Shown: piece after piece, positions 1 through 11,096 of the stretch | Layout: every line of letters starts with the position of its first letter | Position numbering within the stretch: position 1 is the first letter of the stretch | Assembly (NCBI GenBank): GCA_964510585.1 | Contig: CAZECW010000072.1 | Location: forward strand, 1 to 32,000 | Length of the DNA: 32,000 nt | DNA from: an uncultured archaeon | GTDB taxonomy: Archaea > Asgardarchaeota > Jordiarchaeia > Jordiarchaeales > Jordiarchaeaceae | Direction of reading: 5' to 3' | Notes under the pieces: generated by a model | The model's database searches: none | What the model saw: the letters and a program-made list of their open reading frames with translations, nothing else | Told to the model about the DNA's origin: nothing | Translations under genes and position numbers: made by a program

Positions 1-309
1 TGAAGTTCCTCTTCTACAACTCCATCCTGAAGTTTGATGCTACAGGTGAGCTACCCTGGGCAACCATCAGCCAAAAATAAATATGTGAAACACGGATACC
101 TAGCTTAAACTACAAAAATCAAGGAATTATGCAACACAGCATTTTCAATTGCTTAATCTAATTATAAATTAGACCGATTTTCGTTCCCCGCATTACCAGA
201 ACAGCTGAAAAAGCTACTAAGTCAAAAAAATAAAAAAATTAGACAAAAACAGCGGAAAATAAAAATTTTCAGGTTGAAATAGTGGATAATCTGTAGTCGG
301 TAATCAAAG

Positions 310-455
310 TGGCGCAGGAGGCGGGGTTTTCTTGACCAATAAATTTTTTGGATCAATTCGAACCCGCGCTCTCCATCGGAGAACTGGCTTAGCAGGCTTG
401 CGCCCTGAGAATTGTTAATTCTCTGGACAGCGCCTTACCGCTTGGCTACTCCTGC
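310..455 (-). tRNA. tRNA-Ser(GCT) with two 30-nt BHB introns (29/30 at 398-427; 59/60 at 327-356), CCA encoded
   Basis: After removing both introns the minus strand reads GCAGGAG TA GCC AAGCGGTAA GGC G CTGGC CT GCT AA GCCAG TTCTCCGATGGAGAGC GCGGG TTCGAAC CCCGC CTCCTGC G CCA. Acceptor, anticodon and T stems pair fully; the long variable arm and G73 fit Ser. Both introns fold into bulge-helix-bulge motifs. Confidence 0.95.
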
Positions 456-9096: not shown

Positions 9097-9189
9097 GGGC
9101 GTATGGTCTAGCGGTTATGACACCGCGCTTACACCGCGGTAATTCCTTTTTCGGGAGCCGAATCCCCGGTTCGAATCCGGGTACGCCCA
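9097..9189 (+). tRNA. tRNA-Val(TAC) with a 20-nt BHB intron in the variable loop (9143-9162)
   Basis: GGGCGTA/TACGCCC acceptor stem, CCGCG CT TAC AC CGCGG anticodon arm (TAC 9130-9132), CCCGG TTCGAAT CCGGG T arm, A73. The 20 extra nt form a BHB: CGGT/GCCG helix, AA|T bulges, TCCT/GGGA outer helix. CCA is not encoded (CCT). Confidence 0.95.
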
Positions 9190-9632
9190 CCTATACATTT
9201 CGTCTTTTGTTGGTAAATCAAATAGAGAGTATTTTGAACTGTGTTTAATTTGTTGCAATCTTATCTTTCCATCTAAGTTTTGTCCTCCTCTTTTTTCGGG
9301 TTATGCTTAGAAATGTAGTCTCCACCAGTAAAAACAAATGAAATTGCATTTTGGAAGAAACAGAGGTTAAAACCTTGCCTCATAATGATTTAGACCTCCA
9401 TACTGTGCTCAAAAAATCTGTAGGGCGTACTTTGCTAGCACCTCAAACTCTGGAAAAATCTTCAAAAAATACCAGATCTCAAATAGAGAGTAATTTAGAC
9501 TAATCCAGAAATTCGTTCAAGAAAATACGGGCCGCCTGCCAATGTGTTCTAAGGAAAACCATAATGGAAATGAGAATAGGTAACCAGACAAATATGGTAA
9601 AGGTCAGATTAGAGTAACCAAACGTTACTTAC

Positions 9633-9911
9633 AAAACCTTGGCGAGAAAGCCCCCGACTTCAAGTCGTGGGGATGAATCGCCAAAAAAGTTTATTTGAAA
9701 GTAGGGTACATAAATAGTTGTTGGTAGCTGAAGGGTTTGGCTTGGGCTTAAGAGGCTAAACAAGACGCAGCCCCCATGAGGGTGCCAACATAGACGCCGT
9801 TCCCTTTGAGGGAAGGGCGTGCTAACTGGGTGATGGCACACCCATTGCTTCGAAGGCTCCCGATGAGCCAGAAGCAAGAATCTCCCGACTTCAAGTCGCG
9901 GAGAGTGTCAA
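9633..9911 (+). mobile_element. Non-autonomous IS200/IS605 (IS608-type) element with no tnpA or tnpB (MITE/PATE-like)
   Basis: Target TTAC at 9629-9632. Left guide AAAG (9647-9650) precedes the bulged hairpin CCCC-CGAC-TTCAA-GTCG-T-GGGG (9651-9672). Right guide GAAT (9878-9881) precedes the hairpin CTCC-CGAC-TTCAA-GTCG-C-GGAG (9882-9903). Terminal TCAA at 9908-9911. These match the IS608 AAAG/TTAC and GAAT/TCAA guide/cleavage pairs. In-silico excision restores an in-frame CTG TAA end for rpsJ. Confidence 0.9.
9654..9898 (+). repeat. 14-nt direct repeat CCGACTTCAAGTCG at 9654-9667 and 9885-9898 (subterminal palindromes of the element)
   Basis: Identical sequence in both end hairpins. Confidence 0.9.
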
Positions 9912-9931
9912 AGAAGCTCAACTTCAATATA
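9735..9931 (+). ncRNA. Putative TnpB omega-RNA (reRNA) scaffold plus about 20 nt of flanking guide
   Basis: Consecutive well-paired hairpins at 9767-9785, 9794-9820, 9827-9844, 9845-9877 and the right-end hairpin 9882-9903. The translation ...GRANWVMAHPLL...KQESPDFKS resembles a tnpB 3' tail. The 5' boundary is a guess. Confidence 0.65.
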
Positions 9932-10231
9932 AACATCTTCAGGTACTCGGATACGCATAATCTGTCTTAATGTTCTTTCGTCTGCATCAAGATCAATTAA
10001 TCTTTTGTGGATCCTGATTTCCCACCTTTCCCACGTTGCATTACCCTCTCCACTGGGGCTTTTGCGAACAGGAACTCTTAACCTTTTAGTAGGGAGGGGA
10101 ACTGGCCCTGACATACGAATCCCGGTCTTTTGTGTAATGTTTTTAACTTGGTCACATATCGTGTCTAGCTTCGATGGATTGGTTCCAGAAAGCCTAATTC
10201 TAGCCTTTTGCACCACAACTTGTCCATCCAA
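9908..10231 (-). CDS. rpsJ: 30S ribosomal protein uS10; stop codon supplied by the IS element end
   Basis: KARIRLSG...[10 protein letters not shown]...[24 protein letters not shown]...VYIEVEL. Confidence 0.97.
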
Positions 10232-10407
10232 ATACCTTTTTTTATAATAACAACCGCAAAACCTTCATAAAATCCGAAACTTAAAAAACTTTTCCTTTAA
10301 ATTACTAGTACTACCAACTTATTTATTTTTAGGATAATACTTTCACTAGGTTATTTACGTATTACCTTCTAGGGGAGGGAAATTTACTGGAGATTATTTC
10401 ATCTAAT

Positions 10408-10998
10408 ATGAATTTATACTTAGTTAAGCTGAAGCTTACATAGGTGGAGCTACATATCTTCCCTCGCGAATTTGGCCTTGGGAGAAGACATGAGGTAGAG
10501 CACTAGTGGCTGAAGAGGATCGACAACACCAATCAATGAGCACTTCACAAATCCTCCAAAAAGGATAGCTGAATCATTTTGGACGAGTTCCAAGTACCAG
10601 TCGACGGGAAGTGGTGTTTGCCCTCGGTATCCCTGAACTAGGGTAGGACGAATGGTTCTTGAAGACCCATTTTTTAAAAGACCAGAAAGGAATTGATGGT
10701 TACTATAAGGAAAAATACTTTGCTTTTTGTGATTGACTGAAATGCTATCTCTGAGTGACCAAGATTATGACTGTTGGGTGAAAAGCGTAGTGTGATACTT
10801 ACATGTAGCACTATTCAGCGACATAAGGAACGCATAAAGGTATTTAACTATATCTTCATGAAAAGCAGCTGTGAAATTGAGACCATACTTTATATTGCTC
10901 CATTTCTTGCGCGGCAGGCTATTAAAAATCTTGTTTGTCTCCACAAGTCACCAAATCAAAAGGCCTCACCCAAAAACTACAAAAGACTCTCGAGGTGA
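10408..10998 (+). pseudogene. Degraded IS6-family-like DDE transposase
   Basis: One frame from ATG 10408 with in-frame stops (10441, 10504, 10537, 10570) reads NLYLVKLKLT*VELHIFPREFGLGRRHEVEH*WLKRI and IILDEFQVPVDGKWCL. A frameshifted stretch gives TKIMTVG*KA* and the 10774 ORF gives STIQRHKERIKVF. By eye these resemble the IS6 motifs LYLAGLS..LGV.RSH.AI..WV, VDET.V.VNG.W.Y, IVTDG..AY and IER....KER.K.F. Confidence 0.45.
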
Positions 10999-11096
10999 CA
11001 AAAACCTCAAGTTAACAATTTTATGAAAACACGATTAACTTTATCTACCCAAAAAGAAAATAGAAGGTAATACTAAATTTTTGATGAGAATTTGAG

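Follow-up and report, generated by a model that had tools for sequence, protein, structure and literature searches.

The window analysed here, a stretch of 32,000 nucleotides from an uncultured archaeon of the Jordiarchaeia (Asgardarchaeota; GenBank assembly GCA_964510585.1, contig CAZECW010000072.1), contains a 279-bp ORF-less insert at 9633-9911, placed at the stop codon of rpsJ, the gene for ribosomal protein S10. The gene lies on the minus strand, and its TGA stop is the complement of the TCA at 9908-9910 of the element, so that the last bases of the insert and the last codon of the gene coincide. The features of the locus are collected in Table 1. The hairpins, the AT-rich boxes, the TTAC and TCAA motifs and the flank from which the initial annotation of this DNA argued are all in the sequence where it had placed them.

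Table 1. Features of the element and of its insertion site in rpsJ (positions in the window)
Feature	Position	Strand	Description
TTAC	9629-9632	+	Outside the left end; TnpA target and left cleavage motif, predicted TAM for TnpB
Left end	9633-9689	+	AAAG guide tetranucleotide 9647-9650; subterminal bulged hairpin 9651-9672
TTGGCGA/TCGCCAA	9639-9645 / 9677-9683	+	Enclose the left hairpin
TATA-like boxes	9690-9716	+	TTTATTT 9690-9696; (T)ACATAAATA 9708-9716 (ATAAATA 9710-9716); TATATAAATA in most copies
5' structured domain	9719-9786	+	Closed by GUUGGUA/(U)GCCAAC in the RNA fold
Omega-RNA-like core	9787-9911	+	AACATAG anchor, H1, H2, H3, GAAT, right-end hairpin, terminal GUGUCAA
H1	9794-9820	+	ACGCC/GGCGT with TTCCCT/AGGGAA
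H2	9827-9844	+	TGGGTG/CACCCA
H3	9845-9877	+	TTGCTTC-GGCTC/GAGCC-GAAGCAA
GAAT	9878-9881	+	Guide tetranucleotide directly 5' of the right-end hairpin
Right-end bulged hairpin	9882-9903	+	
TCAA	9908-9911	+	Right cleavage motif, final bases of the element; terminates all aligned full copies
Right flank AGAAGCTCAACTTCAATATA	9912-9931	+	Predicted to supply the guide of a transcript that reads through TCAA; antisense to the final codons of rpsJ
rpsJ (ribosomal protein S10)	9908-10231	-	107 aa, ends ..EVELL; Pfam Ribosomal_S10, E 2.6e-31

Regarding its coding content, Pfam gives no match for any of the three short ORFs overlapping the element. Both tnpA and tnpB are missing from it, only a short piece of the C-terminus of tnpB (..NWVMAHPLL..) being left. 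This remnant can still be read against the tnpB of contig C8 in the same genome, where NWVMAHPLL of the element corresponds to NWAMAHPLE. The description of the insert as a protein-free element of the IS200/IS605 type, already given in the initial annotation, therefore holds.

Both allelic forms of the locus can be recognised among close relatives. In two congeneric genomes (G001 and G004) the flanks of the window are contiguous and read ..AACGTTACTTAC|AGAAGCTCAACTTC.., which constitutes an exact empty site. The same junction is found in a 7094-nt contig from a hot-spring run (X4), which is about 98-99% identical to the window and joins 9632 to 9912 exactly, and in a contig from an RNA library (X20), which likewise joins 9632 to 9912 and represents the empty allele of a relative. 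The occupied form appears in runs X1 and X3, whose contigs pass from the flanks into the element. The presence of empty (G001, G004, X4 and X20) alongside occupied (X1 and X3) alleles indicates a recent insertion that is polymorphic among close relatives. The empty rpsJ allele with its TTAC flank, which had been postulated from the letters alone, is thus a real one.

At the level of the codons, the target TTAC is the complement of the rpsJ stop with the base before it (G-TAA), and the TCAA of the element rebuilds a stop at the same place (T-TGA). The gene ends in ..CTT CTG TAA in the empty allele and in ..CTT CTT TGA in the occupied one, and both are translated as ..ELL-stop. Since the stop derived from the element leaves the S10 protein unchanged, the insertion can be tolerated in an essential gene. 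The locus is hence a natural example, with both alleles seen, of an IS608-type insertion that remains silent in an essential gene by means of a stop-codon swap.

The ends of the element follow the code of IS608, in which TTAC (C_L) and TCAA (C_R) are the cleavage sites and AAAG and GAAT are the guide tetranucleotides, located 5' of bulged subterminal hairpins (PMC5934647). All four motifs are present, TTAC and AAAG on the left and GAAT and TCAA on the right. Both ends have subterminal imperfect hairpins on the same strand, each with its guide tetranucleotide ahead of it. Folded as single-stranded DNA, the left end forms the subterminal hairpin at -14.9 kcal/mol (z -4.2 against shuffles), and the right end also forms its subterminal hairpin, with a more modest z of -2.8 and one shuffle equally good. 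As in other members of the IS200/IS605 group, the insertion lies 3' of TTAC, terminal inverted repeats are absent and there is no target-site duplication: the empty sites read ..TTAC|AGAAGC.., with nothing doubled.

A source of transposase is available in the same genome. Genes for Y1 TnpA (PF01797, Y1_Tnp, E 1e-32 to 1e-37) immediately follow left ends of this type on contigs C169, C7 and C162, and the start of tnpB comes next. On these three contigs the identity to the first 60-68 nt of the element is 88-97%, and the same range applies to the left end (9633-9689) when the tnpA/tnpB elements on C15, C49, C67 and C150 are included; at least eight left ends of this type are present, all the full-length tnpA-tnpB elements being interrupted by contig ends. 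A co-resident autonomous element with matching ends and a Y1 (HUH) TnpA thus exists. Box 1 of the element (9690-9696) aligns with the TTTATAGG box that the full-length elements carry about 37 nt ahead of the start codon of tnpA, and an internal deletion probably set the module that follows behind what was the tnpA promoter. Both TATA-like boxes are conserved in the family consensus, and they represent a candidate archaeal promoter for an RNA from the plus strand, an activity suggested by their sequence and position.

The copy at rpsJ is one of many. A BLAST search against the assembly from which the window comes (3.78 Mb in 217 contigs) returned 136 matches to the element. These include 30 full-length copies, 83-98% identical and most of them 93-98%, and 89 half copies (50 left and 39 right) that are cut by contig ends only, which amounts to a total of about 75 element copies, or roughly 0.5% of the genome. 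Of the 434 contig ends in the assembly, 89 fall inside the element, which in this way accounts for a large share of the repeats and of the assembly breaks of this genome. When the full copies are aligned, similarity begins directly after TTAC (the motif precedes 29 of the 30, and is also retained in G001 and G004, where the allele is empty) and stops at TCAA, beyond which the right flanks are unrelated. A pattern scan collected 76 right ends, each with a distinct flank. In three hot-spring runs the depth of the family, when summed, is also very high. A scan of metagenomes with the H3 motif of the family found it in 27 contigs, which come from several JGI metagenomes; among these 27 the internal cases were all mini-elements, and no tnpB-linked parent with a short H3 was seen. 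The metagenome scan with the right flank at rpsJ gave no exact match.

These data bear directly on the possibility that the sequence is a structured RNA gene of the host, or a terminator downstream of rpsJ, instead of a transposon remnant. Such an origin might be suggested by a strong predicted structure adjoining a highly expressed gene, but the approximately 75 copies with unrelated flanks, the exact empty sites in relatives and the IS608 end code speak against it, and no Rfam family is matched. The copy flanks and the empty sites suffice to refute this explanation, to which we attach practically no probability. The same counts alter the view of the locus itself. The initial annotation had proposed a homing parasite at an essential locus; the element is not dedicated to rpsJ but belongs to a family of about 75 copies, and just one of the 76 right ends, that of rpsJ, lies on a stop codon and closes an ORF in this manner. 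A preference for stop codons as a property of the family was consequently rejected. The element is a recently mobile, protein-less IS608-type PATE/MITE, of a kind that has already been described.

What distinguishes the element from a simple pair of transposon ends is the sequence between them. A length of about 190 nt homologous to the 3' end of tnpB and the right end has been retained. Its last 125 nt (9787-9911) are 74-79% identical to the 3' end of the C8 tnpB together with its right end. A covariance model (R1), built from 21 tnpB-linked right ends alone with the mini-elements left out, matches 9787-9911 over all of its 163 positions with 82.1 bits (E 2e-25), and it identifies 84 modules in the genome of the window. 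The homology of the internal part to the omega-RNA region at the tnpB 3' end and right end, as initially claimed, is supported by both the R1 hit (E 2e-25) and the identity to C8 (74-79%). Judged from this homology, what the element retains corresponds to the part of its tnpB-bearing relatives in which the guide RNA is encoded. Upstream of the core, the 5' domain (9719-9786), of uncertain origin and role, resembles the tnpB coding sequence ahead of the core weakly and with gaps. A search of Rfam, including the archaeal sotRNA families, yielded no family that reaches its gathering threshold for the element; the sole hit at E <= 10 is a chance-level match of 20.9 bits to an unrelated sRNA.

The tnpB-linked right ends were gathered from the genus and, with the TnpB of contig C81 as query, from the relatives of this protein. 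The latter are 67-73% identical to it and come from MAGs labelled Bathyarchaeia, Nitrososphaeria, Methanomethylicia, Culexmicrobium, Thermoprotei and others. The layout of anchor, H1, H2, H3 and right-end hairpin is common to the genus and to MAGs of at least six other archaeal lineages. In detail, the shared order consists of AAYATAG, an H1 whose sequences are quite different, GTTAAC, H2 (GGGYG-NTGGCA-CRCCC), H3, GAAT, the right-end hairpin and GAGTGTCAA. When H1 is folded sequence by sequence, a hairpin is obtained in eight of ten lineages, the parsing having missed the window copy and C81. H1 was left out of the model, MAFFT having aligned it, like the C8-type H3, without regard to structure.

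Across the 24 aligned sequences, 95.4% of the cells are paired in H2, the base of H3, the right-end hairpin and a possible pseudoknot, whereas sliding the same pairs by 1-3 columns leaves 37-51% paired. Pairs in which both sides have changed number 11, compared with 4.8 +/- 1.2 in shuffles (0 of 500). The pseudoknot candidate joins the H2 loop UGGCA (9834-9838) to UGUCA (9906-9910) at the terminus; only one-sided changes are seen in it, and a contact between the H2 loop and the end of the module is put forward as a suggestion from the sequence. The covariation resides mostly in the tnpB-linked copies and not within the mini-element family. By itself it cannot separate a role as RNA from a role as DNA, because TnpA acts on the same strand in its single-stranded form. 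As RNA, 9700-9911 folds at -88.3 kcal/mol compared with -66.6 +/- 4.5 for 200 shuffles (z -4.9), and the opposite strand of the same interval also folds strongly (z -3.9), so the choice of strand is not decided by folding energy alone.

This last observation is one of several that would suit a passive leftover, namely a mobile mini-element in which the tnpB-derived region has no functional guide RNA to offer and the hairpins would do no more than extend the DNA structure of the right end for TnpA. In this view the end point of the internal deletion that gave rise to the family fell there by chance. Within the family (about 115 copies), substitutions affect 1.5% of paired and 2.2% of unpaired positions, and 105 of the variant cells break a pair while 46 keep it. 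Variation of this sort, with no clear structure-preserving bias, is to be expected after a recent burst and does not speak for selection on an RNA. The family is young, most copies being 93-98% identical, and in a young family the conservation of sequence needs no selection. A passive leftover would also agree with the deletion of the distal H3 relative to tnpB-linked relatives: compared with the closest modules, those of the C81 type, the element is without about 50 nt of it, a loss that could impair the binding of TnpB. The C8-type elements, which carry tnpB, have a short H3 too.

On the other side, a passive leftover does not readily account for the retention of about 190 nt, given that the TnpA of IS608 requires no more than the subterminal hairpin and the guide tetranucleotide (PMC5934647). 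Nor does it account for the recurrence of the same module. The sister species G004 has its own mini-element, which arose independently from the full-length element of that species by a deletion with other end points and preserves the same 113-nt core. A second mini-element family in the genome of the window, of about 330 bp and with a related 5' domain, carries a long H3 and a full-length module. The promoter-like box, moreover, is placed just upstream of the module, and PATEs are reported often to encode omega-RNAs (PMC10055086). The G004 mini-element, the second family and the upstream box are independent hints that the module has been kept on purpose. On balance, we consider a passive leftover rather unlikely.

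If the module is made as an RNA and used, a TnpB must be supplied from elsewhere. Contig C81 contains one intact TnpB of 424 aa (P0001; PF01385 OrfB_IS605, E 2e-16; PF07282 TNB, E 2e-14), for which the best matches among solved structures are TnpB and Cas12f chains. H2 and the base of H3 recur in its right end, and the 46-nt terminus there is 95% identical to that of the element. Contamination as the origin of this contig was considered and rejected, its flank being syntenic with, and 78-83% identical to, four congeners. A tblastn search of the genome for a second complete tnpB of the C81 type found none, and the tnpB fragments of the C8/C169 type sit at contig ends. Together with the Y1 TnpA elements, the intact C81 tnpB answers the expectation that cognate tnpA and tnpB genes with like ends would be found elsewhere in the genome. 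By these comparisons the element is a mosaic, its left end being nearest to the tnpA-tnpB element and its H3 and right end nearest to the C81-type tnpB element.

In the C81 TnpB and in all the relatives aligned, the position of the canonical RuvC-II Glu is occupied by Gly. This substitution could mean that the RNA binds a TnpB which does not cut, so that the complex would act only as an RNA-guided DNA binder, or that the RNA would be an antisense regulator of the 3' end of rpsJ, to whose last codons it is predicted to be antisense. Conversely, Asp at both RuvC-I and RuvC-III, the cysteines of the zinc finger and a Glu immediately ahead of a TSS motif are kept in 11 of the 11 aligned TnpBs. On this sequence basis the C81-type TnpB fits the 'rearranged' catalytic-site class, the activity of which has been predicted from structure models (PMC10691335), and the conserved residues would then belong to a rearranged but active enzyme. 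The elements are in addition mobile and multi-copy, as expected of active OMEGA systems. Concerning antisense control, a single copy out of 76 abuts a gene end, and for this reason it is not the purpose of the family. A role without cleavage is, in our judgement, improbable. Close relatives of these TnpBs with Gly at RuvC-II (67-73% identity) are spread over many lineages of hot-spring archaea, and whether the enzymes are active would also bear on the 'rearranged' class.

Taken as a whole, the explanation towards which we lean, with moderate confidence, is that of a PATE/MITE with an omega-RNA used in trans, cutting of empty sites and retention of the element. In this mechanism the TnpA of the full-length relatives in the same genome would move the element as single-stranded DNA ('peel and paste'), recognising the subterminal hairpin at each end together with the pairings of AAAG with TTAC and of GAAT with TCAA, and would insert it directly 3' of TTAC. 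From the AT-rich promoter-like stretch, retained from the region upstream of tnpA, a plus-strand RNA of about 170-210 nt would start near 9720-9740, adopt the conserved hairpins and read through TCAA into the flank. At rpsJ the flank opens with AGAAGCTCAAC, and the guide role predicted for 9912-9931 derives from the established mechanism of TnpB (PMC10055086). A TnpB produced by another element would bind this RNA, and the complex would cut element-free sites, consisting of TTAC followed by the flank sequence, while sparing the occupied site. Recombinational repair would then restore or spread the insert.

Some of the properties that had drawn attention to the locus lose their special character in this light. 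That the guide matches the empty allele, which the initial annotation had singled out, is automatic for any IS200/IS605 insertion: the insertion mechanism itself makes the guide identical to the empty allele and puts TCAA in the place of the TAM. The relevance to polyploid cells, also raised there, is speculation. Nor is the concept of an RNA-only element a new one, having already appeared in the literature (PMC10055086).

A further extension may be offered tentatively, and with more doubt than conviction. The approximately 75 copies could form a dispersed library of trans-acting guide RNAs, in which the TnpA of one IS moves the copies and the TnpB of another, either the single C81-type or a C8/C169-type enzyme, destroys empty sites. 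The family would in that case be an RNA-only, self-retaining parasite of two autonomous elements. If this is true, a parasite of an archaeon in an Asgard lineage would be able to hold its position even in the last codon of an essential gene. The system would also be a compact one to examine, with one 424-aa TnpB, an RNA of about 190 nt and a TTAC motif. The idea for which it could serve is that the omega-RNAs of mini-transposons are kept so that TnpB made elsewhere guards them against loss. The use in trans of omega-RNAs borne by PATEs has been proposed already and, as far as could be found, the literature consulted on it holds no experimental test. The current understanding of these systems is not changed by the present finding.

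Three types of known system can be compared with the element. The first is that of the TnpB omega-RNAs, such as those of ISDra2 from Deinococcus radiodurans and the archaeal sotRNAs (RF02656/RF02657), which, like the module described here, overlap the 3' end of tnpB and end at the right-end boundary. Multiple hairpins and a possible pseudoknot beside the guide are further points of likeness, and in both the guide would come from the flank. The module differs from known omega-RNAs in matching no Rfam family, in being uncoupled from tnpB, apparently behind a promoter derived from upstream of tnpA, and in its associated TnpBs, which have Gly at RuvC-II. The second is IS608 from Helicobacter pylori, with which the element shares an identical TTAC/TCAA and AAAG/GAAT code and insertion 3' of TTAC without duplication. 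IS608, however, is about 1.8 kb long and has both tnpA and tnpB, whereas the element has 279 bp and neither gene, and beyond the motifs no nucleotide homology between the two is detectable.

Finally, the closest likeness in kind is to the PATEs. Protein-less derivatives of IS200/IS605 of this sort occur in Geobacillus stearothermophilus (Meers et al. 2023, PMC10055086) and, as the HqIRS PATEs, in Haloquadratum walsbyi (Dyall-Smith et al. 2011, PMC3119063). According to Meers et al., PATEs often encode omega-RNAs, for which the TnpB would have to come from other elements. Like these, the element is protein-less and multi-copy, carries the ends of a co-resident IS200/IS605 element and is presumed to be mobilised in trans by TnpA. 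It differs from them in its hot-spring archaeal host, in its approximately 75 copies, in its mosaic ends and in the one copy that lies on the stop codon of an essential gene.

In G000, the genome from which the window comes, the 279-bp mini-element, a protein-less element of IS608 type, is one of the main reasons why the metagenome-assembled genome (MAG) is fragmented. Of its 434 contig ends, 89 break ~140 nt into the mini-element, the word size of the assembler being ~141, and the full-length copies of the insertion sequence (IS) were in no case assembled whole. G000 also contains a second family of protein-less mini-elements, of ~330 bp, which have TTAC/TCAA ends and combine a TATA-like box with a 5' domain akin to window 9719-9786 and an omega-RNA-like module at full length, with a long H3 hairpin (TTGCAGATAGC.../...GCTGTGTGCAA) unlike in sequence to that of the window element. 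The mini-element of the sister species G004 was derived independently, its source being that genome's own tnpA-tnpB IS (G004:C141), and it consists of ~100 nt of left end and, immediately after it, the final 113 nt (H1-H2-H3-right end).

Coordinates of the features discussed
Feature	Coordinates	Strand	Remarks
Full-length IS	G000:C81:5072-6840		locus L079
G004 mini-element	G004:C176:4194-4400	minus	~205 bp; L091:1453-1659
Second family, copy	C107:6905-7233		
Second family, copy	C58:28225-28557		
Second family, copy	C32:13043-13380	minus	
Second family, copy	C21:~140-398		
tRNA-Val(TAC)	window 9097-9191	+	95 nt; ARAGORN; Rfam 59.8 bits

Close to the window element, rpsJ and a tRNA-Val(TAC) gene are convergent, and the tRNA probably carries an intron, as its length exceeds that of a standard tRNA. 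Upstream of rpsJ, no ORF of at least 80 aa was found across ~800 bp (window 10232-11045). The gene for elongation factor 1-alpha lies immediately before rpsJ in many archaea; the locus may therefore have undergone rearrangement, or it may contain unrecognised features.

In the full-length IS of contig C81, tnpA carries a frameshift close to the N-terminus; with its stop lost, it runs in frame into tnpB, forming an open frame of 571 aa. The tnpB gene is intact (P0001, 424 aa); its reading frame crosses the right-end hairpin and TCAA, and its TGA stop is provided by the flanking DNA. TnpBs 67-73% identical to P0001, with near-identical right ends, are encoded at loci L092-L121 in MAGs labelled as Bathyarchaeia, Nitrososphaeria/Terraquivivens, Methanomethylicia, Archaeoglobales, Culexmicrobium and Thermoprotei, which suggests a wide horizontal spread of this IS among archaea of hot springs and hydrothermal sites. 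Throughout this TnpB family, P0001 and its relatives included, the canonical RuvC-II Glu position is occupied by Gly (..SKIVLGRL.., residues ~270-275 of P0001), and a Glu directly preceding the TSS motif is conserved. This pattern matches that of the 'rearranged catalytic site' class (Altae-Tran et al. 2023), the activity of which was predicted from models.
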